Below, in pieces: positions 10,786 through 33,120 of a DNA stretch of 64,000 bases. The notes under the pieces are model-generated. The model saw nothing but the letters and a program-made list of their open reading frames with translations. It did no database searches and had not been told where the DNA came from. Made by a program: the position numbers and the translations under genes. The stretch covers positions 5,728,001-5,792,000 of the forward strand of contig OZ245365.1 of assembly GCA_965226495.1 (NCBI GenBank), read 5' to 3'. Within the stretch, counting starts at the first letter, position 1. Each line of letters starts with the position of its first letter. The stretch is from Candidatus Marinacidobacterales bacterium. GTDB taxonomy: Bacteria; Acidobacteriota; Vicinamibacteria; Marinacidobacterales; DATDRI01.

Positions 10786-10974
10786 ATTTGCTCATCCTGA
10801 AAAGTTGCTCCCCCCAATCGAGCAAGAATATATTCCCTGTGAAAATTCTAGTCAATGAGTGTGATCGTTCTCACGGTGGTGCGATGGGTAAGCTAATATT
10901 GTTGACTACCCGGTGAAGCCAGATAGTCTGCTGACTCTCACGCCAATACCGGGTGCTCTCATTAGAGGTGAGCG

Positions 10975-11274
10975 ATGCCAGATTTTGGACGAATCATCAA
11001 TCTAGCGTACATGCGCATACTCGGCCGGCCGGCCGATCCGGGCGGCCAGGAGAATTTCGACCAACTCATGAATCAAGGCATGAGCGAGGCCGCGATGCGG
11101 GAGACTCTCGTAAGAAGCGAGGAGTACGCGATCAAGAATCCGGATCAAGCGGCCCAAGCGGCCCAAGCGGCAAAGACTTCCACGAAGGCTTCGGTTAAGA
11201 GCAAACCTTCGAAGCGGAAAAAATCCAAGTGGGCAGGCAGCAAGAAGAAATCTAAAACTCGCAAGAGTCGATAG
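10975..11274 (+). CDS. Small DUF4214-like domain protein with Lys/Ser-rich basic tail
   Basis: AYMRILGRPADPGG...MSEAAMRETLVRSEEY then QAA x3 and KSKPSKRKKSKWAGSKKKSKTRKSR; AGAGG RBS. Confidence 0.8.
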   Translation: MPDFGRIINLAYMRILGRPADPGGQENFDQLMNQGMSEAAMRETLVRSEEYAIKNPDQAAQAAQAAKTSTKASVKSKPSKRKKSKWAGSKKKSKTRKSR

Positions 11275-11304
11275 GCGTTTACCCACCAGACAGAGGCCTA
11301 GCTC

Positions 11305-12381
11305 ATGCCCGATTTTTCGCCCATCATTACCGACGCCTACCAGGAGATTCTGGAACGAAACCCCGATCCGACCGGCCTCGCCAGTTACAACAACCTGATG
11401 AATCAGTTGATGTCGGAGGCTGAAATGCGCGAGTCGCTACTCCGAAGCCCGGAGTATGCGGCCAACAACCCCGATCCCGGCATGCCCACGCGGCTCGGGC
11501 TCAATGCCCACATTCCTACAAACCCCATGCTGCGCGACATTGGCCGGAACCTGGGAATGCAGTGGATTCGGATCGACTTCGATTGGTTCCGAATGGAACC
11601 GCAGCAAGGGGTTTTCAGTTGGGAGGATACCGACCGCGTTGTCGATCAGGCGTTCAAGCTGAACATCGAGCCTTTGGCGACCCTTTCTTTCACGCCGCCT
11701 TGGGCTTCGTCGAACCCTCAGAACCCACAGATCAGCGATCCTCCGGCCCAGACGAGCTATTGGACCACCATCGTCAGGGAGGCGGTCACCCGATATCGAG
11801 ACAAGGTTCGATTCTGGCAATTCTGGAATGAGCCAAACCTCGACCAGTTTTGGCGTGGCTCCATGAGCCAATATCGGACTCAGATCTTGCAACCGGCGGC
11901 CCGCTTGGCCAAGGAGCTCCATCCAGCCAGTCAAGTCGTCTCCCCCGGCCTCGCCAACTTGGGAGATTGGAGGGCTTGGTTCGAAGAGGCGATGAAGGCC
12001 AAGACCCTCATCGACATCATCAATCATCACAATTACCCGAGCCGGGGACGAGACGTCATTCGTGAGCTCGAAGAGGATGAGTTCTTCCGACCTTCTTTGA
12101 GAACCCTGATGGGGGACCTGGGAGTTTCCGATAAGCCGTTTTGGATCACCGAGACCGGGCGAGAGACGAAAGAGGGGGATCAAGTCGAGTATTACCAGGA
12201 GGTCGTCGCGTCGCTCCGGAATAGTGATTGGGTACAACGGATCTTTTTCTTCCACTATTGGGACGGACCGAACCAGGGAAACACCAAGTTCGGGATCGTC
12301 AACGAAGACCTTTCACCCAAAGCGGTCTACCGGTTTCTGCAGTCGGTTCTGAAACCGGTAGCGACCGCGATCCAAGTGTAA
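11305..12381 (+). CDS. DUF4214-like N-terminal module + clan GH-A (GH5/GH39-like) glycoside hydrolase
   Basis: WIRIDFDW, WQFWNEPN (acid/base), HHNY, FWITETG (nucleophile). Confidence 0.85.
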   Translation: MPDFSPIITDAYQEILERNPDPTGLASYNNLMNQLMSEAEMRESLLRSPEYAANNPDPGMPTRLGLNAHIPTNPMLRDIGRNLGMQWIRIDFDWFRMEPQQGVFSWEDTDRVVDQAFKLNIEPLATLSFTPPWASSNPQNPQISDPPAQTSYWTTIVREAVTRYRDKVRFWQFWNEPNLDQFWRGSMSQYRTQILQPAARLAKELHPASQVVSPGLANLGDWRAWFEEAMKAKTLIDIINHHNYPSRGRDVIRELEEDEFFRPSLRTLMGDLGVSDKPFWITETGRETKEGDQVEYYQEVVASLRNSDWVQRIFFFHYWDGPNQGNTKFGIVNEDLSPKAVYRFLQSVLKPVATAIQV

Positions 12382-12384
12382 GAG

Positions 12385-13401
12385 ATGCCTGACTTCACTC
12401 CCATCATTCGCGACGCCTTCCGCGAGATCTTGCAGCGGGAAGTCGATCCCGATGGACAGAATTTCTACAACACCGAAATGAACGCCAGCCTGAGCGAGGC
12501 GGACATGAGGGAGTCGCTTCTTCGGAGTGAAGAGTACGCTCAGAAGAATCAGGGCTTTCAGCCCGCGGTCATCGGCAGGACGTTCAACTTCGACTACATC
12601 GGTTACTCGAGCTTCGGCCTGCTCGGTCGCTCCTTGGAAGACCGTATCGCCTGGGTCGATCGTGGGATCGCCGAGGGAGTCGTCGTATTTCGAGTTTTCT
12701 CCGATACCTCCTTTTGGCCGAGTGATCCGCTCTTGGATCGCGTACCGAAGCACCGCGCCGTGGATGATACGGGGCGACACCCTTCTCGAAAGCACATCCG
12801 GACCGTTAGAGAGACGGTCCGCCAAGCCTTCGTGCCCCGGCGTGCGGTCATGGAGTACGTCATCCTAGTGACACAGTTCGAGGAAAATGGTGGTCCACTC
12901 TTCCGGAGGTTCGAAGCGACCGAGAACTATGTCTACGAAGTGATGGAGGAGCTCAACGATTTGCCGAACATCATTTTCGAGCTGGGGAATGAAGTCGACA
13001 TTCACCGGAAGGGTTGGGATCGTGACCGAGTGAATCGTGTGGTGAAGGAGGTACGCGAGCGGTGGCCACATGTCATCATCTCCTGTTCATCCGGGCGAGA
13101 GCCGGAGCCCGCGTTCGATCGGTACATCTATCCCCAATGCTCCTGGGGAAACATCCATTATCCGCGACAGGACTTCCCGAAGCTCAGTTTCGGCTGGCCG
13201 CGATTCAAGGGGCCCATCGTCGACGATGAGCCGCAGTTCTTTCCCCGTACCAACATCGAGGAATATGTCGCTCACCAGGCACTGATCCTTGAGCAGAAAG
13301 GGTTCATGACCGCCCACACCCGGGAGGGCTTCATTTGTAATCCCAGAATGGAAGGCGATCTCCCCCTTCTGAGAGCCCTCGCCGCTGCCCGGGCGACATA
13401 G
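12385..13401 (+). CDS. DUF4214-like N-terminal module + divergent GH-A-like TIM barrel
   Basis: Same N-terminal module; PNIIFELGNE and PIVDDEP putative catalytic glutamates. Confidence 0.7.
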   Translation: MPDFTPIIRDAFREILQREVDPDGQNFYNTEMNASLSEADMRESLLRSEEYAQKNQGFQPAVIGRTFNFDYIGYSSFGLLGRSLEDRIAWVDRGIAEGVVVFRVFSDTSFWPSDPLLDRVPKHRAVDDTGRHPSRKHIRTVRETVRQAFVPRRAVMEYVILVTQFEENGGPLFRRFEATENYVYEVMEELNDLPNIIFELGNEVDIHRKGWDRDRVNRVVKEVRERWPHVIISCSSGREPEPAFDRYIYPQCSWGNIHYPRQDFPKLSFGWPRFKGPIVDDEPQFFPRTNIEEYVAHQALILEQKGFMTAHTREGFICNPRMEGDLPLLRALAAARAT

Positions 13402-13526
13402 ATTGACCTCGAGATTTCCCCGCGCGTCCTGGCAACCCTTGACAACCACTGCAATTAGGGATAAATATTGGGTTAGACCCCGACCACTTAAAATCGCCCC
13501 TCCCTCGGGAGAGGGTGTGGAGTACG

Positions 13527-14006
13527 ATGGAAGGCAGCCTCCCTCAGAATCGATCCATCCGCCGCCTGACGCCACGGAAGCCCGTTACGGTTGCCGTGCA
13601 GGATGGAGAGACGTCCCTCGCCTACGGCGTGGTGACCAACATCTCGGAGTCGGGTGCGTGCGTGATGACCGATTCGACAGTCGTGCAAGGCCGGATCGTC
13701 ATGCTACGGATGAGCTTTTACCGCCATGCCGACCTCTTCGAGGCACCGGCTCGCATCGTTTGGAGCGGTCCTGAGCTCGACTCCCCGCATGGCGTACCGA
13801 GCGCCGTCCTTCAAGGTGTCCAATTCACGCGTCTCGGCGATCGAGAGGTTTCGAGGCTGAAGGACCTCCTGGACTCGCCGGATTTCGTGCCAGGAGCGGT
13901 GCTTTCCGTGACTCCCGAGTTCGAGGACCTGGTGAGCAACCTGCGGCAGGACCTCGGCAAGCTAGGGTCCAAACTGCGGCGGGACACGCAACGCGACACC
14001 GACTAG
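13527..14006 (+). CDS. PilZ domain protein (c-di-GMP receptor)
   Basis: RRLTPR (RxxxR) and NISESG (D/NxSxxG) motifs. Confidence 0.85.
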   Translation: MEGSLPQNRSIRRLTPRKPVTVAVQDGETSLAYGVVTNISESGACVMTDSTVVQGRIVMLRMSFYRHADLFEAPARIVWSGPELDSPHGVPSAVLQGVQFTRLGDREVSRLKDLLDSPDFVPGAVLSVTPEFEDLVSNLRQDLGKLGSKLRRDTQRDTD

Positions 14007-18428: not shown

Positions 18429-18671
18429 ATGCAGTTGTTGAAATGCCCATCCTGTGCTGTGGAATTGGGGCGTGGGTTTATTTACGTTAGGGGTTTTGCA
18501 GGATCGCTCTTCTGGTCTGAGAGTGGGGATACAAGGTTTTACTCTCGGAAGGGTTTGGAGCAAATTGATCTGAGCAAGATTAGCGAACTACCTACAGGGG
18601 GCCAGGCAGTTGTTCCGGCGTTGCGGTGCTCGGCCTGTGGCATGGTGACCTTCAAGTCGGGGTTGGTTTGA
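18429..18671 (+). CDS. Cassette-encoded small zinc-ribbon protein (DUF6487/PF20097-like)
   Basis: GGAGG RBS right after attC2; KCPSC...GFI...LFW...ALRCSACG. Confidence 0.7.
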   Translation: MQLLKCPSCAVELGRGFIYVRGFAGSLFWSESGDTRFYSRKGLEQIDLSKISELPTGGQAVVPALRCSACGMVTFKSGLV

Positions 18672-18697
18672 GCTCGGAAGATTATGTGCACCCCGTG

Positions 18698-19575
18698 TGA
18701 CTTCAAGTTTGAAGCGCACCATTCGTTAGAGCCATGGAAACGTTCCTCCGGTGTGCGGTAGCCGAGCCTCTTGCGGGGCCGTGTGTTGAGCTTCTTTGCG
18801 ATACGATCGCAGTGGCGTTGCGTGAGCGCTGCTTGGCTGGTGCGCTTCGGCAGGTATTGTCGTAGCAGGCCATTGAAGTTCTCGTTGCTGCCTCTCTCCC
18901 ATGAGTGATAGGGAGTTGCGAAGTAGAACTTGACGCCGGTCGTTTCCTCGACGGATTCGTAGTCGTGGAACTCGGTGCCATTGTCCGCGGTGATCGTCTT
19001 GACCTGCTCCGGCACCCGCCGGAGCAACATCTTCGTTCGCTGGCTAGTGCCGAACATGCTGCGGTCGGACAGCTTGCCGATCAGCGCATAGCCCGTCTTT
19101 CGTTCCACGAGCGTGGTGACGCAGTCCGGCGCGCCTTTTCCTACCACGGTGTCGATCTCCCAGTGGCCAACGGCACGGCGCTTCTCGACACAAGACGGCC
19201 GCTCGGAGATGTGACGCTTCCCGGCCAGGTGGCCTCGGCTGTCGTAGCTGTTGTGGCGCTTGCGTCTAAGTTTGGGCGAGCATCGAAGGTGGCGGTATAG
19301 ATGTCCTCCGGCCTCCTTGTCCCGCCAAACGTGGGTGTAGATCGTCTCGTGGCTGATCGAGAGCTCGCCGTGAAGGCGCAGGTGGCCGGAGATCTGCTCT
19401 GGGCTCCAGTCGGCCTTAAGCTTCTTCTCCACCAGGGCAAAGTCGGCCTTTGTGAAGTACTGGTTCCGGCGAGACCGCGAGCGTCGTCCGTTCGTTCTCT
19501 CGATGGCCTTGCTCGGCCGGTAGCATCCATCACTACGTGAGCTGTTCCTCCTGACCTCTCTCGAGATGGTGCTCG
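18698..19575 (-). mobile_element. IS30-family element, 5'-truncated transposase
   Basis: STISRE.RRN, WSPEQI, SHETIY, GHWEIDTV, TITADNGTEF, WERGSNENFNGLLRQYLPK; IS30-like terminus near 18698-18722; N-terminus and left end missing. Confidence 0.88.
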
Positions 19576-20111
19576 CGGCCGCGGCCCTGGGTGGCTGTGG
19601 TGCGGAGGAGTCCACCCAAGGGGTGTCTGTATTGCAGGCGCCAGCAGCAGCGTACAGATTGCCCGCGCCGCCAGGTCAATCCACTTGGCCCGAGGCCCTT
19701 GGCGGAGACTGGCGAGTGATTGAGTGGCTGCCGAACCGAATCGGAACGTGGTCTTTCGAAGAGGGCAACGCACTCGTCGGACAGGTTGCAAAGCTCCACA
19801 CGAGCGAGCTTGAAGTTCCGGGATATTCGTGTGAGCGCCCGAACTTTGCGGTTTCCGACACCGGCAGGTTCTGGGAAAGGTTCGCGCAGTGCATGGGCCC
19901 GGAGCCACGCGGGGATTGTCGGGACATTGGGTGGGTTGGCAAGGCGATGCTCAAGTGCGCCGATTCGGATTCTGACCCGACGGTATTGGCCGAAGTCAGC
20001 GCTAGGTGTCCCGACGGTCTCCCCTTTACGTTTTCGCAGCTGTCGGGCTCAAGAGCCTTTCTAGGATTGCCGGATGGTCGGGGTTCCCTCTGCCTGAAGC
20101 TGATGAAATAG
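19566..20111 (+). CDS. Cys-rich putative lipoprotein cassette gene, 5' end probably clipped by the IS30 junction
   Basis: LAAAALGGC lipobox-like segment, several Cys, stop codon 14 bp before attC3. Confidence 0.55.
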   Translation: MVLAAAALGGCGAEESTQGVSVLQAPAAAYRLPAPPGQSTWPEALGGDWRVIEWLPNRIGTWSFEEGNALVGQVAKLHTSELEVPGYSCERPNFAVSDTGRFWERFAQCMGPEPRGDCRDIGWVGKAMLKCADSDSDPTVLAEVSARCPDGLPFTFSQLSGSRAFLGLPDGRGSLCLKLMK

Positions 20112-20124
20112 TGGCGTGGCAGCC

Positions 20125-20247
20125 GCAGAACACGCCGTTGCAGCGGGCGATCGGCGAAGGAGGGTTGCACCGTGGCAGCGCGAAGCGCTGTCCCTTCGCG
20201 CTCCCGCGTCATTGAGCGGGGCTCGCCGCTTGTCCGCAGTGTTATAC
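20125..20247 (+). mobile_element. Integron attC site 3
   Basis: GCAGAAC...gcagcgggcga / tcgccgcttg...GTTATAC. Confidence 0.7.
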
Positions 20248-20307
20248 GGCGCTGATGTCTTCGACGTTAATGTTGGTTTTGTGGCATCACTTCTGAGTGT
20301 AAACGCA

Positions 20308-20706
20308 ATGAATCAACTCTTTCGGTTCTCCAGTTCGGTTAAACGGGATCCTGCCGTCGATGCCTGGATGGCGGAACATTCGGGTGACTTGGGGGCAATT
20401 GCGCATCACTGGTTTGAGGCCATGCGCAAGTGTGGAGACGATGTCCGAGAACTTTTGCATGACGGCATGCCGACCGCATGTGTAACTGACGCGGCATTCG
20501 CATACGTCAACGCATTCACCGCGCACGTCAATGTCGGGTTTTTTCGCGGCGCCGAGCTTGCGGATCCGGCGGGCCTGTTGGAAGGCACTGGCAAGTATAT
20601 GCGGCATGTTAAGGTCAGGCCGGATGGTGACATCGACGCTAAGGCCCTCATGGGACTTATCGATACTGCATACACGGACATGAAGGACCGCCTTAAGGCG
20701 GAGTAG
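20308..20706 (+). CDS. DUF1801 (YdhG-like) domain protein, gene cassette
   Basis: HVNVGFFRGAELADPAGLLEGTGKYMRHVKV signature. Confidence 0.88.
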   Translation: MNQLFRFSSSVKRDPAVDAWMAEHSGDLGAIAHHWFEAMRKCGDDVRELLHDGMPTACVTDAAFAYVNAFTAHVNVGFFRGAELADPAGLLEGTGKYMRHVKVRPDGDIDAKALMGLIDTAYTDMKDRLKAE

Positions 20707-20757
20707 ATCGTGCCGGCTATCCGTAGATTTGGCCTTTTGGAGGGAATCGAGGCGCCC

Positions 20758-20862
20758 GTATAACAATGGCATGGAGCTGACAGTCCAAAATCGCACCGTC
20801 CTTGCAAAGAGAAGACCAGGGCCGGCGCCATTTTGCCCTCCAGCTCATACCCGACGTTATGC
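20758..20862 (+). mobile_element. Integron attC site 4
   Basis: GTATAAC...atggagctg..caaaat / attttg..cagctcat...GTTATGC. Confidence 0.85.
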
Positions 20863-20901
20863 AGACAGGCGTGCGATCCTCTTGCGGCGCTCCCAGTCCG
20901 C

Positions 20902-21381
20902 TCACCGTGACTCTACCCCTTCGGTGTAAACGTAGCGCCGCGCGCGGCTCATGACCGCATGCCGCTCATAGCCGACGGGTTCGATCGTCCTGCCGTCTGT
21001 GCGGTAGGTCGAGATGTCACGCGTGGTATTGCCTCCTGTGGATAGCGTGAGTTCCCACGTCCCGCCATCGATCCGCGTTGCTCGAAGCGACTGACTGTAG
21101 TCACCCTCGCTTGCGGCGGCGACGGTCTCGACAAGGGAGTCGATCGCGGACTCCGGGGGAAGGAAGATCACTCCAGGATCCGCGGCGGCGATGTCCTCCG
21201 CCTGCCGGAGTCGCATGATCTCAGCCGAGGGTATCCCGCTCTCGGGGTCGGGAACTAGAGCCACGACCTCGAAAACATGATTGTATGCTTCCAATCGAGA
21301 AACACGTTCCGGGGGGCCGCCGTAGGCCAAGCAACCAGCAAGGAACCCGGCTGCGATGAATCCAGCAGGCCGAAAGGACAT
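20902..21381 (-). CDS. Hypothetical lipoprotein in a reverse-oriented cassette
   Basis: MSFRPAGFIAAGFLAGC lipobox; lies between attC4 and attC5 on the opposite strand. Confidence 0.6.
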   Translation of the reverse strand: MSFRPAGFIAAGFLAGCLAYGGPPERVSRLEAYNHVFEVVALVPDPESGIPSAEIMRLRQAEDIAAADPGVIFLPPESAIDSLVETVAAASEGDYSQSLRATRIDGGTWELTLSTGGNTTRDISTYRTDGRTIEPVGYERHAVMSRARRYVYTEGVESR

Positions 21382-21516
21382 GGCGGGGAAAGTCTACCAG
21401 ACTTCATGGACGAAGAGCCGGTTCGCATCACGCTGACGAGAGCCTCGGAAAAATGAGCGGGGTTTCAGAGACGATCGCCGGAGCAGGAAAGCTATCGAGC
21501 GTAGGCGCGAATAGCT

Positions 21517-21588
21517 GCATGACAAGACGCTGAACCTGACGGCCGGCACGCGTTGTTGGCCAGCCGCAGGTTAGCGACAACGTTAGAC
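21517..21588 (+). mobile_element. Integron attC site 5
   Basis: GCATGAC...cgctgaacctg..ggcc / ggcc..caggttagcg...GTTAGAC. Confidence 0.8.
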
Positions 21589-21631
21589 AGTTCTGAATGG
21601 GAGCCAACCGAATGGGTTGCGCTGCGCGTAC

Positions 21632-21689
21632 TTGAAGGAGTTGGCTCCCCGGGTAGGACTCGAACCTACAGCCATCGGATTAACAGTCC
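21632..21689 (-). repeat. att site: duplicated 3' part of tRNA-Asn (outer copy)
   Basis: ttgaaggagttggctccccgggtaggactcgaacctacagccatcggattaacagtcc is identical to 30393-30450. Confidence 0.95.
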
Positions 21690-24206
21690 CAATCAGGACC
21701 AAACTGACAGCACCCAAGAAGACCTAACCGACACCAAGAACGACGACTTAGACGAGAAGTAGGCGTTCGTGGATCGTCTTGGTTTGGGTTGTTCTGGTAG
21801 CAGCGTGGTAGCAGAACTTACGGCCGAGGAAAACCGGAATGAAACGACTAGGTTGCGCTCAAAGGGAGCGTTGAGTCAAAAGCCCATTTCCGGCCGCGAA
21901 GGCGAACAAACACTGACAAGGGAACCCAATAAGATCAGGCCTCCTCCCGCCAGCAGTTGCCTCAAGTTGTCAGGTTCTGTACGATATTCAAGGACAAAAC
22001 GCGCACAAAATCCTTTCACAGTTGTAAGGCTCGTAATCCTTCCGGGATGACTGGCTGATTCGATTGCCTCCGAGAAAGAGGACCCAGCTTCGTGAGCAAG
22101 GTGGTCGGCATCGACCTGGGCACGACAAACTCGTGCATTGCGGTGTTGGAGGGAGGCACGGCACAGGTCATCCCCAATCAGGAGGGTGCGCGGACGACTC
22201 CTTCCATCGTGGCCTTTACCAACAAGGGCGAGCGGCTAGTGGGACAGATCGCTAAGCGGCAAGCCCTGACCAATCCCCAAAACACCGTCTACGGCATCAA
22301 GAGGCTGATCGGACGGCGATTCGACTCTCCAGAAATCGAGGGCGTCAAGAACGTTCTCCCCTACGAGATGGTCCAGTCCGCCAACGGAGACGCCCACATC
22401 AAGATCGACGATAAGGTCTATAGCCCCCCTGAGCTCTTGGCCATCGTCCTTCAAAAGCTCAAAGCGGCGGCGGAAGACTATCTCGGTGAGCCGGTGGAAG
22501 ATGCCATCATCACTGCTCCGGCGTATTTCAATGAAGCTCAGCGACAAGCTATCAAAGATGCCGGGGCGATCGCGGGACTGAAGGTGCTGCGTATCCTGAA
22601 TGCGCCTACAACCGCCGCGCTGGCCTACGGGCCCCAACATACGCAAGCCGCTACGGTCGCGGTTTACGACCTCGGTGGAGGCACTTTCGACATCTCGATC
22701 CTAGAGCTCACGGACGGGCTTTACCAGGTACTCTCCACCGGTGGCGACACCTATCTCGGGGGCGAGGACATCGATCAGCTCATCATCAATTGGCTTGTCG
22801 ATGAGTTCAAGAAGGAGACCGAGATCGATCTCACCGGGGATCGCATGGCGCTCCAGAGGCTAAAGGAAGCCGCAGAGAAGGCCAAGTGCGAGCTCTCGAC
22901 GTCTGCTCAGTCGGAGATCGTTCTTCCCTTTATCTCCGTAAACCAGTCCGGCCCTAAACATCTCAACACCGTCCTCACGAAAGGAAAGTTCGAGGAGATG
23001 ATCGATCCGCTGCTCGAACGGACTGTCGAGCCGTGCATGAAAGCCTTGAAGGACGCCGGCCTTACGAAAGACGAGATCGACGACGTCGTTATGGTGGGCG
23101 GCCAGACCCGTACGCCCAAGGTCCTCGAGACCGTACGGAAGGTCTTTGGCCGCGAGCCCAACCGAAGTGTGAACCCCGACGAAGTCGTGTCGATGGGGGC
23201 CGCGATCCAGACCGGCATCACATCGGGAGAGGTCACCGACCTCGTTCTGCTCGACATCACGCCGCACACGTTCGGTATCGAAACCAAGGATGGGACGTTT
23301 ACACCGCTCATCGATCGTCAGGCTACCGTTCCCACCAAGAAGAGCCGCATCTTCACGACAGACGCTGACAACCAGACCACGTTCGAGGTTCACGTACTAC
23401 AGGGAGAGAACGAGCAGGCCGCCTACAACACGTCTTTGGGTCGATTCTCATTGGCGCACATTGCTCCCGCCCCAAAGGGTAATCCCAAAATCGAGGTAAG
23501 CTTCGAAATCGACATAAACGGGATTCTATACGTCACCGCCCTCGACCTGGCGACGGGCCACGAGGAGAACTTTGTTCCCCGCGCCACGGGCGGACTCACA
23601 ATGTCTGAGGTCGATCGCCTTCGTGATGAGTTCCGATCCAGGGCCGAAGAGTGGCAAAAAGAAACAGAGCGACAACGAGGAAAAGAACAGCTCCTAGTAC
23701 TGATCGCCAACACGAAGAAGAAATTGTCCGCGGTTTCGGGCAAGCTCACCGAAGACGAGCGTGCTCGCGCACAGGAGGCCCTCGAAGCCGCCGAACAGGC
23801 CACGAGTGGAGACAACCGGGAGGTTAGTGCCGATCCGTCCCGTCTCCAGGCGCTCGCCGAGCGGCTCTCGCAGGTTTCGAATGCTGTTGTGGCGAGAGTC
23901 ATTGAGGAGGCAAAAGCGCACGGTTGGCAGATACAGGTCACCTGCCCTGCCTGCGATACGCAGTTGAAGGTCTCTCCAAAGGCCACGGACCCCGGCAAGC
24001 GCATTAGATGCCCTAGCTGCCGCAACGTCTTTGACTTCTAGCGCCTTGACATCTCCCTGGATGAATACCGAGTTCGCATAGCCACTTCTTTACTGATTGC
24101 TCTTCTTGGCTGACAGCCACAAAAGCCGTCACAAATAGTAGTAGCGAAAAAGTGGTAGCAAAGGCCGGAAACGGGAGGACCCGAAGCCCGCAAGAGTTTG
24201 AAGGAG
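21690..24206. mobile_element. Island A: 2.5-kb integrase-less element integrated at tRNA-Asn
   Basis: Flanked by tRNA-Asn 3' repeats; TGGTAGCA arm-like repeats at 21795/21806 and 24153. Confidence 0.8.
22092..24041 (+). CDS. dnaK: Divergent Hsp70/DnaK paralog with C-terminal zinc ribbon (MJ0042-like)
   Basis: GIDLGTTNS, YDLGGGTFDIS, LGGED, VGGQTR, NPDE, linker DLVLLD; tail CPAC-x17-CPSC. Confidence 0.9.
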   Translation: MSKVVGIDLGTTNSCIAVLEGGTAQVIPNQEGARTTPSIVAFTNKGERLVGQIAKRQALTNPQNTVYGIKRLIGRRFDSPEIEGVKNVLPYEMVQSANGDAHIKIDDKVYSPPELLAIVLQKLKAAAEDYLGEPVEDAIITAPAYFNEAQRQAIKDAGAIAGLKVLRILNAPTTAALAYGPQHTQAATVAVYDLGGGTFDISILELTDGLYQVLSTGGDTYLGGEDIDQLIINWLVDEFKKETEIDLTGDRMALQRLKEAAEKAKCELSTSAQSEIVLPFISVNQSGPKHLNTVLTKGKFEEMIDPLLERTVEPCMKALKDAGLTKDEIDDVVMVGGQTRTPKVLETVRKVFGREPNRSVNPDEVVSMGAAIQTGITSGEVTDLVLLDITPHTFGIETKDGTFTPLIDRQATVPTKKSRIFTTDADNQTTFEVHVLQGENEQAAYNTSLGRFSLAHIAPAPKGNPKIEVSFEIDINGILYVTALDLATGHEENFVPRATGGLTMSEVDRLRDEFRSRAEEWQKETERQRGKEQLLVLIANTKKKLSAVSGKLTEDERARAQEALEAAEQATSGDNREVSADPSRLQALAERLSQVSNAVVARVIEEAKAHGWQIQVTCPACDTQLKVSPKATDPGKRIRCPSCRNVFDF

Positions 24207-24253
24207 TGGCTCCCCGGGTAGGACTCGAACCTACAGCCATCGGATTAACAGTC
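24196..24253 (-). repeat. att site: duplicated 3' part of tRNA-Asn (middle copy)
   Basis: tggctccccgggtaggactcgaacctacagccatcggattaacagtc matches the tRNA-Asn 3' 47 nt. Confidence 0.95.
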
Positions 24254-24720
24254 GTGCTCAGCTGAACACCAACGAGCACCAACCGAGTCCAACTGGCACG
24301 AAAGGCTCGAAGAAGCGATGACGGTCGTCTCCGTTGTTTCGGCTAGCCCAGAGCACTTTTGGCACCAACGCGGCACCAAAAGGCGCGGTCAACCAGCCGT
24401 GTTGGTCCTACGTTTCTCGTATCTCGTCGAGACCAAGACTTTGTGCGCGGTCAGACGAAATCTCAGCACTGTGTACCCTTCTCCCAAGGGTGATGCCGAT
24501 CCTTCCTCCATTCGACACGACGAGGAAACGACGCGACGCGCACACCGCGCTGCAAGTTTCATGACGGAAGCATCGTGGGCCGCGTCCGCCGACAGGCGCT
24601 CTTAGCTAGAAATGAAACGCGACGCCGAAAACGGGTCCTTGGTAGGTGACGTCCAAGCCGAACTTCTTGCTCGCGCCACACTGCGGGGTGCGCTCTCCAT
24701 CGATCCAACTCCTTCGTGCC

Positions 24721-24757
24721 AATGAAAATGGCTGCCCGCGGTTGGCCGCGGGCAGCC
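24721..24757 (-). terminator. Probable intrinsic terminator of the sulfatase gene
   Basis: ggctgcccgcgg-ttgg-ccgcgggcagcc perfect hairpin followed by attttcatt on the minus strand. Confidence 0.6.
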
Positions 24758-24827
24758 GATCAACAAACGCTCTTACGAATGCGATTCGTCGATCAACAGA
24801 GTGTCTCGCAGAGCAAGTCCGAAGTAG

Positions 24828-26546
24828 CTACTTTTTGATGCCCCAATCGGCCTCGAATTTCTCGTATTCCCGAGAGCGTTTTAGCACTTCGTCGACATCG
24901 AAAGGAACGTCGCCTTTATTGAAACGAGATTTTGACGCCTTGATGGTTTCGGGCCGCGCGTTGGCAATGCCGGTCAGGGGAAACCCTTTTGCCTCATCAA
25001 CGTTGGGATACTTTTCCATCCAGATCTCATGACGCGCTTTCATAGTGTTAAACATCCCCTTGGTGGGAAACATGGGGAGCATCATGCCTTGCACTTCCCG
25101 CGGGTCGTTGTAGAGGTCGTAGAAAGATGCACCACTGAGTCCCGGGAGCTCGCCCACCCAATGCCGCTTGAATCGGCCTTTGACCGACGCCGCGTAGATT
25201 TCCCCAGTGTAAATATGAACATAATCGCGTCGACTATGGCTGTCACCGTTCAAAAACAGAGACGTTTGGTCTATCCCATCAATAATGCGATCGGTAGGAA
25301 TATGCCTGGTCGCTCCACCGAGACGGGCGAAGGTGGTAAACAAGTCGGTAATGTGAATGATATCCCCAACGGTCTGACCTGGTTCGATCATCCCTGGCCA
25401 CATTGCCATGGCGGCGACCCGGACACCGCCTTCAAGATAGTCACCTTTTCCACCACGATAAAGCGTTTCAACCATTCCCGGCGGGCCGTTATGGGTCATC
25501 GGGCCGTTGTCCGCCATAAAAATGACCAGGGTATTCTCGGCGATGCCTAGCTCTTTCAGCCGTTTCATTAGATTACCCACAAAGGGATCGAACCTCGCAA
25601 GCCCCTCCTGCAGGAATCCACGCGATAGAGTATTTATATCCGGGTGTGGTCCAAAGGCAATAAGGCTGGGCCACAAGGAAACATAGAACGGTTTGTTCGC
25701 GGCGGCGTTCTTCTCAATAAAGGCCATGGTCCGCACTTCTTCCTGTTCCAGCGCCGCGTACCAGTTCTTGAGGTCTGTTGATGGAAGAAACTCTCTGACT
25801 TCTCCACCCTTTATTCCCTCGAGGTGCCACACGGCACCCTTAGGGCGCCAACCTTTATCCAAATCGTAAGGATCGGCCGGGAAAATCTCGGGGTGTAAGC
25901 TAGTTGGTGCTAATGCACCGGCGGCTTCGAGTTGCGGCAGGTACATACTTGGCACCTGGTTATACGGGGTCCACAATGCCTCATCAAAACCCTGCTTGGT
26001 GGCATAACTTTCTTCAACATCACCCAGGTGCCATTTACCGAAGAACCCGGTCGCATAACCGGCCTCACTAAGCACCTCACCCATGGTGACTTCATCTTTC
26101 GCCAGTCCCCCGTATTCGTACGGGAAGCCAACGTTGAACATGCCGTTTCGGCTCGGCATACGCCCCGTCATGGCGGCGGATCGACTTTGGGTACACGCTA
26201 TCTCGGTGTACATCCGCATAAAGATGATGCCTTCACTCGCCAACTGGTTCAGATTAGGGGTTGAAAAACCGCGAATCTTTTGAATCGCAGGCACACCGAC
26301 TTCGCCAACTGCTGTGTCATCTACCATCAAGTGGACGATATTCGGCGGCGTTCCGTGCTTCTCTCGGAGCGCGGCGAGCCTCGCGTCTAGCTCTTCATCC
26401 TCGGCTGCCCACTTGTCGCCGTGCTGGGCCTTTAGGACATAAAACTCGGCGTCGTGTACGATTTCCATATTCTCGGGCTGAGCCCAAGCGAAGCTGCTCG
26501 TCACAAGCAGCAAACAGACTGTCATTCCCGTAACACTTTTCATCAT
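24828..26546 (-). CDS. Exported arylsulfatase (formylglycine-dependent family)
   Basis: PNIVHLMVDD, CTQSRSAAMTGR, GKWHLG, NTLVIFMADNG, GGKG...EGGVRV, YDLYNDPRE; RBS GAAGGAG before MMKSV. Confidence 0.9.
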   Translation of the reverse strand: MMKSVTGMTVCLLLVTSSFAWAQPENMEIVHDAEFYVLKAQHGDKWAAEDEELDARLAALREKHGTPPNIVHLMVDDTAVGEVGVPAIQKIRGFSTPNLNQLASEGIIFMRMYTEIACTQSRSAAMTGRMPSRNGMFNVGFPYEYGGLAKDEVTMGEVLSEAGYATGFFGKWHLGDVEESYATKQGFDEALWTPYNQVPSMYLPQLEAAGALAPTSLHPEIFPADPYDLDKGWRPKGAVWHLEGIKGGEVREFLPSTDLKNWYAALEQEEVRTMAFIEKNAAANKPFYVSLWPSLIAFGPHPDINTLSRGFLQEGLARFDPFVGNLMKRLKELGIAENTLVIFMADNGPMTHNGPPGMVETLYRGGKGDYLEGGVRVAAMAMWPGMIEPGQTVGDIIHITDLFTTFARLGGATRHIPTDRIIDGIDQTSLFLNGDSHSRRDYVHIYTGEIYAASVKGRFKRHWVGELPGLSGASFYDLYNDPREVQGMMLPMFPTKGMFNTMKARHEIWMEKYPNVDEAKGFPLTGIANARPETIKASKSRFNKGDVPFDVDEVLKRSREYEKFEADWGIKK

Positions 26547-27252
26547 CGTGGTACTCCTTCGGTAAAAAGAGGAAGTGGTTGTGTATTGGTTCAGCGTGAA
26601 GATGACAGCGAGGTTGGAGGTTAACGCAACGCCGGGCGGCAGGAAGTCCCCTCTCACCCCAGGGATCGTATCATGGTTCTCGGGCGCTCTCTGGTGCTCA
26701 TTGCTTGTGGGCGAGAGGGAACGGAGTGGGCTTCCTGGGATCAGAGTGTTCATGCTGCTCATACGCTGCTCTCACGCGGCGCCTCCCGAGCCTGCTCGAG
26801 TTTCCGGTCGCGCTCCGACCAGATCTCTGTGGCCTTGCCATCCATCAAGTCCGGCGGCGCTAGGTAGCCGAATCGCGCTGTGCAGGCGAACCCCTAGAAT
26901 TTCAAAGGCGTGAACGCGCTTTCCAACCTACGGATTACGCATAGGATCGCGGCCACGTGAGCGCGACACCTCGGGTCCGATATTTCGTGGCAGCGCGAGT
27001 GTGGTAGACAGGGGTTACGCTCATCTCCGCGCCTCTGATCGACACAGACACTCCTCAACCGCCTTGCCCTGTTTGCTTGAGTTCTGCTACCCTCACCAGG
27101 ACTCACTCGGACTGCACAGCCCTATCCTGGTGGGGGAAATTCGAGCGGACCGGGGCCGGACACGTATGAAATTTCCTATCCTTCTCCAGTACCAAGGGCA
27201 ATACTTGGGATAGGGGAAAGCAAATTCCTTCCTGTATCCTGGGGGACATCCA

Positions 27253-27768
27253 ATGAGGCAATTATCGAGTTTTGGGGTTGTGATCTTTCTAGTCAGTATG
27301 TCTTTGCAAGGCTGTGCGCCGGAGCCGGGGCGTGCCGTCGAAGAAGCTCCCACCACCGAGGCAGACGTGGAGGCGGTCAAGAGGGTGCGAGAGCAAGCCG
27401 TGGCCGCGATCAACGCAGGCGACGCGGACGCTGTCGCTGCTCTGGCTACCGACGACATAGTGTGGATGCCGCAGGACAAACCGACCAGCATTGGCAAAGA
27501 GGCGTTTCGATTGTACTGGGTCGCGCTCTTCGAGCAGTTCGTCTTCGACAGAACCCTCTCCCACGATGAGGTCATCGTGGCTGGCGACTGGGCGATTCAT
27601 CGGAGCACACTGGAAGGCACGCTGACCCCAAAATCCGGGGGTGAGTCGAGGTCCCATAGCGCGAAGGCCATCGACATTCTAAGACGCCAGCCGGACGGCT
27701 CTTGGAAGCACGCACGCATCATCTTCAACAGCAATAGCCCGGATGTTGCCGCTCATCCAAACTTGTAA
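27253..27768 (+). CDS. NTF2-like/SnoaL (DUF4440/YybH) lipoprotein
   Basis: LQGC lipobox; INAGDADAVAAL..DD, AGDWA, LRRQPDGSWK. Confidence 0.85.
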   Translation: MRQLSSFGVVIFLVSMSLQGCAPEPGRAVEEAPTTEADVEAVKRVREQAVAAINAGDADAVAALATDDIVWMPQDKPTSIGKEAFRLYWVALFEQFVFDRTLSHDEVIVAGDWAIHRSTLEGTLTPKSGGESRSHSAKAIDILRRQPDGSWKHARIIFNSNSPDVAAHPNL

Positions 27769-27799
27769 TTCAATATTGGGTTCTGGCCATCCACGCCCC

Positions 27800-27897
27800 A
27801 CTCATCGCGAGCGCGATCCCAAAATCGGTCACCATCGCCTCGCCCTCGTGCAACAGGATGTTCTCCGGCTTGATGTCCCGGTGGATCACATCGTGCC
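27800..27897 (-). pseudogene. Ser/Thr kinase catalytic-loop fragment
   Basis: Translates to HDVIHRDIKPENILLHEGEAMVTDFGIALAMS. Confidence 0.75.
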
Positions 27898-28147
27898 GCA
27901 GGACAGGCTCATCCCTGCCCCGATCATCCATTCGGCCCGCGCTACGCTGACCCCGAGCCTCAACTAACGGTGAACACCCTTATCACGACCGTAAATTCCC
28001 TCGTCCCGACACTGAGGCTCCGGCACCGTAGAAGACGGCGTTCTGCGGTCGTTATCGGGACCGTGGATCGATCCCAGTTGCGCCAATCCGATGGCAACCA
28101 CGGGGCCTTTCCTTGATTCCTCCATCACGTGGACCGACCTAGCAGGG

Positions 28148-28387
28148 TCAGGTTCGATCTAGCGCGGCAGGATGAGCGCGTTTTGGTCGAACACCGAACG
28201 CGCCGATGTAAATGACATTCCCGTCGCGCACGACGGCAGCGGTCAGTCCCGGTATCCCGCTCGTCCGCACCTGCTCCACCAGGTAACTGTCGATGCGCGC
28301 GCGAAGATCCTGTGCGCTCGCGCCCGCTGCCGCGCCTACGATCGACAGAACAACCAGGTAGTTCAATCGAACATTGGCACCCACCAT
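28148..28387 (-). pseudogene. Serine hydrolase (beta-lactamase family) N-terminal fragment
   Basis: Signal peptide + IDSYL...GIPGLTAAVVRDG.VIY..AFGV, truncated before SxxK. Confidence 0.7.
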
Positions 28388-28575
28388 GGCTCGCCCTCCC
28401 GACAGCATGGTCCGTCTAACGGCTTCCGCATAACCGGCCCAAAGCACACGGGCCTACTTCCCAAAATCTAGCGATAGCGGACACGTGGAGCAACAGTTTT
28501 TTAAGCTAGCACTGGCGCGCTTTGGGTCCGCGTTGATGCGCTGGTTATGCGCCACACTTCGAGCTGTATTAAGTT

Positions 28576-28880
28576 CTAATAACCGCTCGTTTGATCGGGC
28601 AGAATCACGTTGTTGCGCTCAACATAGTCTTCCCAAAGTACGATCATTTCAGCGAGCTTCTCCGGATGAGACGCAGATAAATCGTGTATCTCGGCCGGAT
28701 CGTCAGAGAGGTTATACAACGGCCATTTATCTGGCATCACCACGGGTACCACCCCATCACGAATCTCATGCTGCGGTAGATATATAATTGTCCAGTCGCC
28801 CTGGCGGATTGCACGCTTGCCGAACAATTCCCAACCCATGTAGTCGCCAGGCTGTCTAATCGTGTCACTTGCCCCGGTCA
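28576..28880 (-). pseudogene. Arylsulfatase C-terminal fragment
   Basis: GWELFGKRAIRQGDW...LYNLSDDPAEIHDLSASHPEKL..M...WEDY. Confidence 0.75.
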
Positions 28881-28972
28881 GCAACGGCACCGTACCAAGG
28901 AGCTTCGGAGCTTCAGGATCGGCAAACACATTCGAGTTCAGCGCACCGCGCTCGATGACTACCTTCGCAAGG

Positions 28973-29001
28973 TTGACAGGTCACTATACGGAGAGTATAG
29001 T
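28973..29001 (+). promoter_or_regulatory. Sigma70-type promoter with overlapping palindromic operator
   Basis: TTGACA-17 bp-TATAGT; inverted repeat ACTATAC-ggaga-GTATAGT at 28983-29001. Confidence 0.75.
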
Positions 29002-29008
29002 CCGCCTC

Positions 29009-29209
29009 GTGCAAGGAAAAGAGCTGCGCGCCGTCCGACAAAAACTCGGCCTGACTCAAGAAGGATTCGCCGAACGCCTGGGCGTCACAGCGAACAGCGT
29101 GGCGCGGTGGGAGCGGGGCGAAATGCCGATCAACCGGCTCGTCGATAACTTCGCCCGGCTACTGAAGCGGACTGACGCGCCGACGCTGAGAGCAAAAAGG
29201 AAAAAGTAA
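29009..29209 (+). CDS. XRE-family HTH regulator (probably leaderless)
   Basis: ELRAVRQKLGLTQEGFAERLGVTANSVARWERGE; GTG 7 nt after the -10 box. Confidence 0.85.
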   Translation: MQGKELRAVRQKLGLTQEGFAERLGVTANSVARWERGEMPINRLVDNFARLLKRTDAPTLRAKRKK

Positions 29210-29215
29210 GGATCC

Positions 29216-30330
29216 ATGTCGAAAGTCTACAAGAGAAAGGACCGGGATAAGTGGATCGCGGACTTCCGCGATCACCGTGGCAAGCGTAAGCGCCAGACGG
29301 CGAAGACCCGAGGCGAAGCCGAGGATCTTCTGGCCGCTGGAATCAAAGCCGCGAAAGAGAAATCCGGCGACGCCCGCCTCGATGAGAAGAAAAACCTGGA
29401 GGAGTATGCTGCGGAGTAGCTGGAAGGCGTCAAAGCTGAGGGCGAGCTGGCACCTAGAACGCTCTATGACTACGAGAGCCACTTAACCAAGCACGTGCTA
29501 CCCGAGCTTGGGCACCTGAAGCTCAAAGACATCCCCCCCTCGGGCCGTGAAGGCTTTCCTTCGAGAGAAGAAGGCGGCGGGCTACGCCAAGAACACGGTG
29601 CGGCTCATGCGGGCAGCTCTATCGGTCGTGCTCTCCGATGCAGTTGAAGACGGTTTCATAAACACCAACCCGGCCCTCGCAACCAAAGGTGGCAGGCGGA
29701 AGCGGCCCGGCGCAATGTCAAAGGCCGAGAGACTGCAAAAGATCCGGCCCATGACGTGGGAGCAGCTTGAGAAGTTCCTCGACGCGGCCCACGGCTTCGA
29801 TCCCTTCTATGGAGTGCTCTTCGAGGTCATGGCGAAGACTGGCTTGCGACCTGGCGAGGCCCTAGCGCTCCAAGTAGACGATCTTGATCTTCCAGCTCGC
29901 AAGGCGCGGATACAGCGTGCGGTGAGCATGGGCCATGTGAAGGACACCAAGACCTCGGAGGCGAGAGACGTTGACCTGAGCACCGACCTGGTGGAGTTGC
30001 TTCGGGGCTACGTGGCTCAGCTTCAGGGAGAAGCGCTACGGAATAGCTGGGAGTTGACTTGGCTCTTTCCGAGCGCAACGAACACCCCTAGAGACCACTC
30101 CCACGTCTCGAAAGCATACCGCCGAATCCTTCGGCGTGCGGCGATCCCCAACTTTCGGCTCTACGATTTGAGGCACACCGCCGCGTCGTTGCTGCTGGCT
30201 CGGTGCGCCCCCATCACCTACGTGGCCGCGCAGCTCGGACATGCCAAGCCCACAACCACACTCACCTACTACGCCCACCACATTCCGACCGAAGGAGTGT
30301 CTTTCGCCGACTTCTCGACTCGGTACCGGA
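29216..30330 (+). pseudogene. Phage/island-type tyrosine integrase with internal TAG (29417) and frameshift in a C7 run (about 29534-29540)
   Basis: Arm-binding N-terminus, TGLRPGE, KDTK, YDLRH, LGH, YYAH; homology continues in frame past the TAG (LEGV...HVLPELGHLKLKDI); 3' end approximate. Confidence 0.85.
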
Positions 30331-30402
30331 AAAAGTTGGCACCAAAGTTGGCACCAAAACGGGTACTGAGGGGGATGAGTTACCGGAAGTGTTTGAAGGA
30401 GT

Positions 30403-30477
30403 TGGCTCCCCGGGTAGGACTCGAACCTACAGCCATCGGATTAACAGTCCGCCGCTCCACCATTGAGCTACCGGGGA
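30403..30477 (-). tRNA. tRNA-Asn(GTT)
   Basis: TCCCCGGTAGCTCAATGG...GGACTGTTAATCC...GGTTCGAGTCC...GGGAGCCA. Confidence 0.97.
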
Positions 30478-30531
30478 ATAGGGTCAGCGGGAAAAGAAGT
30501 ATAACACGACGCCTCAGGCGGGTCAGGACCG

Positions 30532-31128
30532 CTAAGTTCCTGATTTAGTCAGGTCCTGCAGCACCAGCTTGGCCACCGCTTTCAACGTATCGAAAACACC
30601 CACCCCGTTTTGGGATTTGGCGATGGCCTCCAAGACGGGCTCGGTCCTGACGGAGAGCGCTTGCTTCATCTCTTCGACCGGAACCGCGCTCGGCAGATCG
30701 CGTTTGTTGAGTTGGAGGACGTAGGGAATGATCTGAAGATCGTAACCTTGCGATTTGAGATTCCCGTCTAGATTCTGAAGGCTTTCGATATTGGCATCCA
30801 TACGCTCACGCTGTGAGTCCGCGACGAAGATGACACCGTCTACGCCCTTGAGGATGAGCTTCCGCGAGGCGTCGTAGAATACCTGTCCCGGAACGGTGTA
30901 CAAATGAAAGCGCGTCTTAAAGCCGCGGACGTTGCCGAGCTCGAGTGGGAGAAAATCGAAGAACAAAGTCCGGTCCGTCTCGGTGGCGAGAGAGATGAGC
31001 TTGCCTTTGGCACTGGGATTGGTCTTATCGTAGATGAACTGCAGGTTGGTGGTCTTCCCGCATAGCCCCGGCCCGTAGTAGACGATCTTGCAGTTGATCT
31101 CCCGCGAGGCGTAGTTGATGAAGGTCAT
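30532..31128 (-). CDS. mglA: MglA small Ras-like GTPase
   Basis: [48 protein letters not shown]. Confidence 0.97.
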
Positions 31129-31149
31129 CCGTTCGTTCCTAGCTTCAGA

Positions 31150-32814: not shown

Positions 32815-33120
32815 TTAGAAGAGGCCCGGGATTTTGAGTCCGCCCGCCATGTCGCCTAGCTGGCGCTGCGTCTCCTCATCGACCTTGCGCGCGGTCTCGT
32901 TGACAGCGGCGGTAATAAGGTCCTGCAACATCTCCACGTCGTCTTTGTTGACCACTTCCGGGTCGATGGTGAAGCTGGTGATGACCTTGTTGCCGTTCAT
33001 CTGAACCGTGACCATGCCGCCGCCCGAACTTCCTTCTACTGACATGTCACCGAGCTGCTGCTTGAGTTTCTCCTGCATGACCTGTGCTTGTTTGAGTATT
33101 TGATCCATGTTCTTGAACAT
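32815..33120 (-). CDS. ybaB: YbaB/EbfC nucleoid-associated protein
   Basis: KQAQVMQ, GSSGGGMV, EMLQDLITAAVN; between dnaX and recR. Confidence 0.95.
   Translation of the reverse strand: MFKNMDQILKQAQVMQEKLKQQLGDMSVEGSSGGGMVTVQMNGNKVITSFTIDPEVVNKDDVEMLQDLITAAVNETARKVDEETQRQLGDMAGGLKIPGLF

Follow-up and report, generated by a model that had tools for sequence, protein, structure and literature searches.

Why would a small basic protein and two putative glycosidases start with the same 56 residues? This question is raised by three consecutive genes, here called p1, p2 and p3, which lie at positions 10975-13401 on the + strand of a 64,000-nucleotide (nt) stretch of DNA (the window) from a marine/soil acidobacterium of the Vicinamibacteria (Acidobacteriota), and which were compared with nine relative loci. 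From its sequence kinship, the shared module appears to be a DUF4214 or phycobilisome-linker-type four-helix unit placed in an atypical architecture. We tentatively propose, with less than even confidence, that it may act as a co-localisation tag, the units pairing in trans and p1 serving as a basic adaptor. The elements of the locus are the following, in coordinates of the window.

10786-10974, no strand: divergent intergenic region between an esterase gene (- strand) and p1.
10975-11274, + strand: p1, 99 amino acids (aa), with a DUF4214-type unit (residues 1-56), an Ala/Gln/Ser/Thr linker and a Lys/Arg-rich tail.
10975-11142, + strand: module copy 1, p1 type with R14, hidden Markov model (HMM) E 3.7e-37.
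11305-12381, + strand: p2, 358 aa, with the module (residues 1-56) followed by a predicted GH39-type catalytic barrel of the glycoside hydrolase clan GH-A.
11305-11472, + strand: module copy 2, enzyme type with E14, HMM E 2.7e-36.
12385-13401, + strand: p3, 338 aa, with the module (residues 1-56) followed by a predicted divergent clan GH-A (beta/alpha)8 barrel of no defined family.
12385-12552, + strand: module copy 3, enzyme type with E14, HMM E 5.2e-37.

The three genes are co-directional and separated by 30 nt (p1-p2) and 3 nt (p2-p3), the latter gap suggesting translational coupling of p2 and p3. Shine-Dalgarno-like motifs precede all three ATG codons (GAGGTG in the case of p1), and no terminator-like or promoter-like site was found on the + strand inside the trio. 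The promoter of the cassette presumably lies within the divergent intergenic region, where promoter-like matches were found on the - strand only and none on the + strand.

Residues 1-56 of the three proteins align without a gap, with 28 invariant columns and a pairwise identity of 55-62%. When the six-frame translation of all 64 kb was searched with an HMM built from the three modules, the trio open reading frames (ORFs) were the only ones returned (E 3e-36 to 4e-37), and no further copy was found in the window, the next best match having E = 1. A chance likeness of the three modules can thus be dismissed. Downstream of the module the sequences part, since the profiles of the p2 and p3 families, when compared, align over the module and about 50 low-confidence columns only. 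Three tightly spaced genes with a common N-terminal module and complete divergence beyond it had been described in a first-pass annotation of this DNA, and this description holds. In the AlphaFold2 (AF2) model of p3, the module consists of four helices (residues 5-16, 22-33, 38-46 and 49-54), with a predicted local distance difference test score (pLDDT) of 85-94 over residues 1-40; the linker that joins it to the barrel (residues 41-70) is modelled with intermediate values of 68-74.

The kinship with DUF4214 and phycobilisome (PBS) linkers, also put forward in that annotation, is weak against the Pfam model and strong in the reverse direction. Against the 23.2-bit cutoff of DUF4214 (PF13946), p2 scores above (24.4) and both p1 (21.2) and p3 (16.3) below, all three modules covering positions ~24-71 of the 72 of the profile. 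In the reverse search, the module profile matched 7229 representatives at 50% identity (E<=0.001) among 1.84 billion proteins, which also gives the measure of how widespread DUF4214 is, and PF13946 was found at E<=1e-6 in each of the 60 multi-repeat matches scanned, out of 125. These 125 multi-repeat proteins, counted among the 150 best matches, hold 2-14 tandem units, often internal or C-terminal, and the domains beside such multi-copy units are FG-GAP, PKD, cadherin/Ig, DUF11, Kelch, Glucosaminidase, YkuD, GHL10, peptidase and kinase domains. The other 25 carry one unit (two in P0066), nearly always from residue 1, and are members of the families treated here.

As to the PBS linker (PF00427), p1 reaches 14.0 bits against a threshold of 28.7 and matches profile positions 68-114 only of a ~126-residue domain. 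Among solved structures, the profile matches of the module are phycobilisome-linker/ApcE REP domains alone; they are weak (E 3e-4 to 0.1, ApcE at E 3e-4) and cover the second half of the PBS-linker domain (residues 87-134 of 3osj and 2l06). Each ApcE REP domain holds two copies of the motif ~60 residues apart, and the Pfam PBS_linker model covers two adjacent units in many multi-unit proteins. PBS-linker domains are known to serve in protein-protein assembly. The DUF4214 fold has been likened to that of the PBS linker 2KY4 and occurs on secreted proteins of segmented filamentous bacteria (SFB) (PMC3371716), in which DUF4214 has been called a 'likely surface-anchoring domain' (PMC12780176). Likewise, Psh of Pseudomonas putida is presented as an RTX-DUF4214 protein exported by a type I secretion system, which binds the O-antigen of lipopolysaccharide (LPS) and of which DUF4214 is the helix-rich half (bioRxiv 10.64898/2026.09.02.748959). 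The usual DUF4214 architecture, i.e. tandem units in secreted or surface proteins, is not that of the trio, in which the unit occurs once per protein, at residue 1, and signal peptides and transmembrane segments are lacking. This position is a property of the families, the module being found at residue 1 in 40/40 p1, 110/120 p2 and 30/34 p3 proteins (most exceptions are fragments), and its MPDF start is nearly fixed.

By sequence and motifs, p2 is a member of GH39. It passes the Pfam Glyco_hydro_39 model (42.0 bits where 26 suffice, residues 87-250), and its closest solved relative is PslG (5bx9, E 2.4e-13, p2 residues 81-351), followed by GH39 beta-xylosidases. The WNEPN motif of p2 aligns with the WNEPN of PslG, and its ITETG with STEWG. 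In 29 sequences of the family, W174-N175-E176-P177-N and T-E283-T-G are invariant, and the catalytic pair expected of clan GH-A, an acid/base Glu within NEP and a nucleophile Glu, is present, N175-E176-P177 and E283 falling on the NEP and TE motifs of PslG, in which the residues aligned with E176 and E283 are presumably the catalytic ones. The p2 family comprises 129 proteins at E<=0.001, of which the named members all belong to Acidobacteriota/Vicinamibacteria. Several carry the label PslG or GH39 in their source.

PslG is the endoglycosidase of the Psl exopolysaccharide in Pseudomonas aeruginosa (PDB 5bx9/4zn2), and p2 shares with it the GH39 family and the WNEPN motif. PslG has an N-terminal membrane anchor and is found in the context of an exopolysaccharide biosynthesis operon. 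In contrast, p2 bears an N-terminal DUF4214 unit and no hydrophobic anchor or signal (maximal 19-residue Kyte-Doolittle hydropathy 0.91), is of low identity, and stops ~85 residues short of the PslG C terminus (416-aa chain, aligned to residue 331). Furthermore, no glycosyltransferase or polysaccharide-export gene adjoins p2, whose neighbours are genes for an esterase, a deoxyhypusine-synthase-like protein, a PilZ protein and a HAD protein. Lacking the anchor, the exopolysaccharide operon and part of the C terminus, p2 is not a PslG equivalent in context.

Judging from its modelled fold, p3 would be a clan GH-A barrel of an undescribed family. No Pfam GH family reaches threshold (Cellulase, at 11.3 bits and E 0.24, stays below its cutoff of 23.5), and no NCBIfam match was found. 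The AF2 model, built from 21 sequences (pLDDT 76.4, predicted template modelling score 0.75), consists of four N-terminal helices followed by a beta/alpha barrel. Foldseek gave 51 matches to it at E<=0.001, headed by the GH140 apiosidase 8t9w (E 5e-6, template modelling score 0.53, the best) and including GH5 mannanases, GH79 and GH35. The residues G201-N202-E203 stand directly after the strand 196-200 and are invariant in 21/21 sequences; D281-E282-P283 is invariant in the same 21 sequences and lies in a poorly modelled region (pLDDT <50 at 262-277, 60 on average at 281-290). Because the canonical NEP and NET motifs of a distant relative, P0101, align on both glutamates, E203 is read as the predicted acid/base, and we infer E282 to be the nucleophile. 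The two cargos had been announced as a GH5/GH39-like enzyme with WNEP/ITE motifs and a divergent GH-A barrel with GNE/DDEP motifs, which agrees with the Pfam and motif results for p2 and, for p3, with the modelled barrel and the family-wide invariance of GNEV and DDEP. As a separate observation, when the p3 model was compared by fold with viral structures, uncharacterised Caudovirales proteins came out as best matches (E 6e-9 and 4e-6, root-mean-square deviation >15), together with a DUF4214 protein of a mimivirus-like virus, and the ESM Atlas leads for this fold are GH5-like and apiosidase-like clusters together with one virus-dominated cluster (score 0.92).

The unit is not confined to the cargos of the trio. 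An HMM search for other cargo fusions, such as the first-pass annotation had called for, found more of them, all GH-A-like. A fourth class of cargo ('class 4': P0128, P0135, P0153 and P0089) has the same N-terminal unit and a GNE motif that aligns with the GNE of p3. Its model is weak (pLDDT 61.6) and its fold matches are GH5 throughout, which is consistent with a GH-A barrel without being proof of one. The distant p3 relative P0101 also bears the N-terminal unit, and neither P0101 nor P0128 has sequence relatives among solved structures. The catalytic cargos examined are all GH-A-like. The number of units may vary for a given cargo, as P0043 has three units in cis and no leader before the class-4 cargo that follows a single unit in P0128. 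In P0066, a p1-type (R14) unit is located directly upstream of a class-4-type (E14) unit.

What distinguishes p1 is a disordered tail (residues 57-99) that counts 16 Lys or Arg and 1 Asp or Glu in 43 residues, in line with the linker and very basic tail reported beforehand. The 40 relatives of p1 are 66-106 aa long, each with the module from residue 1. Compared pairwise, they are on average 83% identical over the module and 43% over the tail. The tail is basic in all of them, its composition being conserved and not its sequence. Eleven module positions, located in helices 1 and 2, are conserved in p1 only (G5, R6, N9, L10, M13, R14, P19, A20, Q25, E26 and D29). Position 14 is the clearest of them, with an Arg in 100% of p1, a Glu in 96% of p2 (29 aligned) and a Glu or Asp in 100% of p3, and a basic residue at this position is the minority state of the unit at large (10% of 527 DUF4214 repeats). 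At L10, M13 and R14 the enzymes have variable or acidic residues. By helical periodicity, these three positions would be located outside the hydrophobic face that F4, I8, A11, Y12, I15 and L16 make up.

A genome scan extended to 7 kb on either side of each hit delivered nine loci, L001 to L009, all in metagenome-assembled genomes of Vicinamibacteria/'Ca. Marinacidobacterales'. The complete cassette is found in the same order in 6/9 of them (L001, L003, L004, L005, L008 and L009), p1 being the first gene in all six, so that the proviso that the trio might not be conserved in relatives falls away. Two further loci retain part of it: L002 is a 1.5-kb contig with the tail of p2 and p3, and L007 has the C-terminal part of p2 and p3 beside an ISL3 transposase and a peptidase fragment. 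The flanks change. The BamA-like, deoxyhypusine-synthase-like, esterase, PilZ and HAD genes are common to the closest relatives only (L001 and L004), a PilZ gene follows the trio in L001-L004 only, and a giant GH140-apiosidase/CBM9 protein is encoded downstream in L008 and L009 only. Beyond the closest relatives, no conserved neighbour indicative of a pathway or a secretion system was found in the nine loci. Since the order is kept in 6/9 loci while the flanks change, the trio appears to travel as a unit through changing contexts.

Several observations on these flanks may be added. Directly downstream of the trio, L008:8164-13053 and L009:8084-9943 encode Ig_Rha78A_N, DUF5060, GH140 apiosidase-like, collagen-binding-like and CBM9 domains, and upstream of it L008 encodes a 1622-aa pyrroloquinoline quinone (PQQ)-propeller/DUF11 protein. 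In the window, a gene for a PilZ domain of the cyclic di-GMP receptor type (13515-14006) begins 113 nt 3' of p3, and a second PilZ gene is found at 52761-53339. A divergent GH-like neighbour returned by tblastn in L005 was discarded, the extracted ORF being an Arg/Pro-rich wrong-frame artefact with no Pfam match.

The module copies seem to be old paralogs that have been kept separately. In a tree of 82 modules, which is poorly resolved and rests on 56 columns only, modules group by protein family and not by genome, with 11 label changes against a mean of 42.1 after shuffling, and none of 200 shuffles gave a number as low. Within the trio, the modules share 56-62% nucleotide identity and 39-46% at third codon positions. 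Recent duplication and concerted evolution were ruled out on the same grounds. Furthermore, modules and catalytic domains are equally constrained, with mean identities of 65% and 62% in p2 and of 67% and 70% in p3.

Where these proteins reside bears directly on what the module may do. The first-pass annotation had seen no Sec or Tat signal on any of them and had left room for signal peptides hidden behind upstream starts. The first point stands and the reservation can be lifted, an in-frame stop codon being located one codon upstream of each ATG of the trio. Hydropathy analysis and a scan for twin-arginine motifs found no Sec or Tat signal in the three proteins (maximal 19-residue hydropathy <=1.09, no transmembrane segment, no twin-arginine motif), and their N-terminal 10-residue hydropathy (0.59-1.55) is well below that of the neighbouring signal-bearing esterase (2.74). 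Neither a signal peptide nor a transmembrane segment takes the place of the module among the family members examined. The trio proteins would stay in the cytoplasm or be exported by a route that escapes recognition here. Pfam gave no RTX or HemolysinCabind match in the trio, and the only HlyD and OEP genes of the window belong to a resistance-nodulation-division (AcrB) operon 22 kb away, C-terminal signals being of a kind not recognisable by sequence. No gene for a secretion system, a shell or a compartment was found with the cassette, be it in the window or in the nine loci, which leaves without support the suggestions of a compartment or granule coat and of an export route that had accompanied the original description. 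Encapsulin and microcompartment shell families were likewise not found in the window or the loci, and the module is a folded 56-aa domain and not a short targeting peptide. NCBIfam, PHROGs and PADLOC gave no meaningful matches, so that nothing points to a role in phages or in defence.

How, then, might the shared unit work? DUF4214 and PBS-linker units are normally neighbours in cis, and in the reading that we tentatively favour, the single units of the trio would pair in trans. We lean towards trans-pairing because the unit is normally found beside another unit, be it in cis arrays or in the two-unit PBS-linker domain. The three proteins would thereby form one assembly in which hydrolases of different specificity act on one complex polysaccharide, most likely an exopolysaccharide- or envelope-type glycan, proposed in view of the kinship of p2 with PslG. 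Within this assembly p1 would be the adaptor, engaging through its private conserved module face (L10/M13/R14), of a charge opposite to that of E14 in the enzymes. An adaptor role is favoured because p1, which has no enzyme to offer, keeps the unit best (83%) and leads the cassette. The polybasic tail would then tether the assembly to a polyanion, which could be an acidic polysaccharide, a membrane surface, a nucleic acid or polyphosphate, either in the cytoplasm or outside after an unrecognised export step. Co-localisation is further favoured because the p1 module has 11 private positions, among them R14 where the enzymes have E14, and because the class-4 cargo occurs with one unit (P0128) or three cis units (P0043) and P0066 has an R14 unit next to an E14 unit. 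The gene order kept in 6/9 loci, the separate upkeep of the old module copies, their constraint on a par with the catalytic domains and the assembly role of the PBS-linker domain speak for it as well.

A bolder form of the same idea is unlikely in our view. Single PBS-linker-type units would constitute a trans-assembling 'velcro', and the trio a dockerin-free, cellulosome-like glycan-processing complex of leaderless enzymes, nucleated by the 99-aa polybasic adaptor and possibly linked to an unrecognised export route or to granule or membrane tethering.

A number of points weigh against co-localisation by pairing. The positions conserved across the p1, p2 and p3 modules largely correspond to the fold-defining DUF4214/PBS-linker motif and not to a lineage-specific interface. 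P0345 (502 aa, encoded on a 2.49-Mb contig), a p2 homolog of 62% identity, has a CBM9 (residues 31-199) in the place of the module, before the same catalytic-domain junction, a swap more in keeping with substrate binding than with the pairing of proteins. P0351, encoded on that contig too, is a fragment without module. P0030 and P0031 are p3 relatives without the module, and L006 has p3 without p1 and p2. The pattern of one basic and two acidic units, considered for a time as support for a heterotrimer, was dropped, as it occurs in 3/13 of the three-repeat proteins listed against ~24% expected, i.e. at the level of chance. The literature cited here describes DUF4214 as surface-anchoring or O-antigen-associated and not as an oligomerisation domain (PMC12780176, PMC3371716, bioRxiv 10.64898/2026.09.02.748959). 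Finally, the cassette is disrupted in several relatives. In L004 (5897-8012), p2 and p3 are both frameshifted, and p2 has an in-frame TGA at the codon of the invariant Gly215 in L008 (5912-6988) and of the invariant Trp171 in L009 (5925-6992); recoding was ruled out there, one stop replacing a Gly and the other a Trp, which is not consistent. These disruptions may stem from errors in long-read assembly, or the cassette may truly be decaying in some lineages, in which case the full trio is maybe non-essential.

The best of the other explanations, a doubtful possibility in our estimate, is that the module is an independent anchoring domain akin to a carbohydrate-binding module (CBM). Each protein would bind the same envelope or matrix polysaccharide without any pairing, p1 being a non-catalytic binder whose tail grips an anionic component. 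This explanation was absent from the first-pass annotation, and the evidence for it is no weaker than that for co-assembly. Indeed, the CBM9 of P0345 sits where the module normally does, and multi-copy units are found on envelope and glycan enzymes and on surface proteins (Glucosaminidase, YkuD, GHL10, FG-GAP, PKD, cadherin/Ig and DUF11). One binding module distributed over different catalytic families is the usual logic of CBMs, and the three cis units of P0043 would fit avidity. The O-antigen binding of Psh and the 'likely surface-anchoring domain' of SFB point the same way, but the Psh preprint infers its binding domain rather than mapping it (bioRxiv 10.64898/2026.09.02.748959).

On the other hand, without signal peptide, transmembrane segment or known export signal, the access of the trio to a surface glycan is left unexplained, as are the private face of p1 and its reversed charge at position 14. 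To our knowledge, DUF4214 is not a recognised CBM family, and we know of no DUF4214 unit for which sugar binding has been shown. The CBM9 swap is also a single case, and the N terminus of P0345 may be mis-called. Glycan binding and pairing do not exclude each other, as trans-paired units could form a glycan-binding array.

It is rather improbable that the three proteins have no targeting role in common, the unit capping the barrels at their N terminus as a structural element spread by domain shuffling and p1 being a separate small regulator (for instance an inhibitor, or a binder of nucleic acid or polyphosphate) that shares it by chance. The positions common to the three modules, being mostly a generic fold motif, would suit a cap, and the pLDDT of 68-74 over residues 41-70 is compatible with packing of the module on the modelled barrel; p3 alone in L006 and the module-less p3 forms also fit. 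However, the catalytic domains of p2 and p3, which profile comparison does not detectably relate, carry the same unit, and the barrel-less p1 keeps it best (83% identity) and leads the cassette in the six complete loci. Nor would a cap be replaceable by a CBM9 or triplicated. Less probable still is an export route, neither Sec nor Tat, that recognises the module and co-secretes the trio: the place of the module exactly at residue 1 (40/40, 110/120 and 30/34) with a nearly fixed MPDF, the many secreted DUF4214 proteins, several of which begin with the unit and no leader, and the fact that the nearest enzyme relatives (PslG, GH5 mannanases and a GH140 apiosidase) act mostly outside the cytoplasm would suit an export signal, but no secretion-system gene is linked to it in the window or nine loci, the unit is often internal or C-terminal in the 125/150 multi-unit matches, unlike export signals, module-less and CBM9-bearing variants occur, and known secretion signals at the N terminus do not resemble a folded domain of four helices (pLDDT 85-94).

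Set beside known systems, the trio resembles several of them in part. It has the same helical unit as the DUF4214 repeat proteins (Psh and the SFB surface proteins), but these are secreted or surface proteins with 2-14 tandem units, whereas the trio is a leaderless three-gene cassette with one unit at residue 1 of each protein. Compared with the phycobilisome linker and ApcE REP domains (PF00427), the module is a weak match to half a domain, below threshold, in a non-photosynthetic host and with no phycobiliprotein context. As in the cellulosome, a small shared module is borne by different catalytic domains and a non-catalytic partner is encoded alongside; unlike in the cellulosome, the module is helical and N-terminal, signal peptides are lacking, and no dockerin or cohesin Pfam domain was found in the trio or the window. 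Likewise, p1 is a 99-aa basic protein and not a multi-cohesin scaffold such as scaffoldin, and the assembly of the trio is a putative one. The likeness with CBM-bearing glycoside hydrolases lies in an ancillary non-catalytic module on GH-A barrels, of which P0345 with its CBM9 would be a natural variant, the difference being that the trio proteins are leaderless. The first-pass annotation knew of no described system with this layout, and our literature search found no publication on it either, although preprint supplements, including the domain-cargo figure for Psh, may list glycosidase cargos. No paper assigning a mechanism to DUF4214 was found in this search.

The cassette is a minimal and compact system, with one unit per protein, for a clean test of pairing, glycan binding and export. 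It defines a leaderless PslG-like subfamily of GH39 and at least one undescribed family of clan GH-A (p3, with P0101 and class 4 as distant relatives). PslG-type enzymes are of applied interest as biofilm-matrix hydrolases, and the Vicinamibacteria are an abundant and poorly cultured group of soil and marine bacteria in which polysaccharide turnover matters for carbon cycling. If the module were a self-assembling tag, it would offer a small helical alternative to dockerin/cohesin for the co-localisation of enzymes. If the bolder trans-assembling form were true, it would amount to a new principle of glycosidase assembly in Acidobacteriota and to a first molecular function for DUF4214.

The remainder of the window holds some features that are worth recording. 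About 8 kb upstream of the trio, 282-2597 encodes a protein of 772 aa that ends in a GH113 domain (E 5e-55), also of the GH-A clan. An rve-type integrase/transposase (18542-19615) and a recombinase of the phage-integrase family (29547-30545) bracket a stretch of lower G+C content (0.543 at 24-26 kb) in which an Hsp70 that ends in a zinc ribbon (22092-24038) and a sulfatase (24831-26762) are encoded, and the 18542-30545 stretch may be a mobile or acquired segment. At 30535-31638 on the - strand, the gene of a small Arf/Ras-like GTPase adjoins a Roadblock/LC7 gene, and we take the two to be an MglA/MglB-like pair. The RecR ORF at 32416-32814 (- strand), found in the usual dnaX-ybaB-recR arrangement (33129-34952 and 32818-33120), is 133 aa long and matches positions 2-44 only of the 85 of the Toprim profile; it may be truncated or frameshifted. 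Lastly, the Ser/Thr protein kinase encoded at 53387-55426 (- strand) matches the DnaJ J-domain internally, at residues 469-527, which is an unusual combination.

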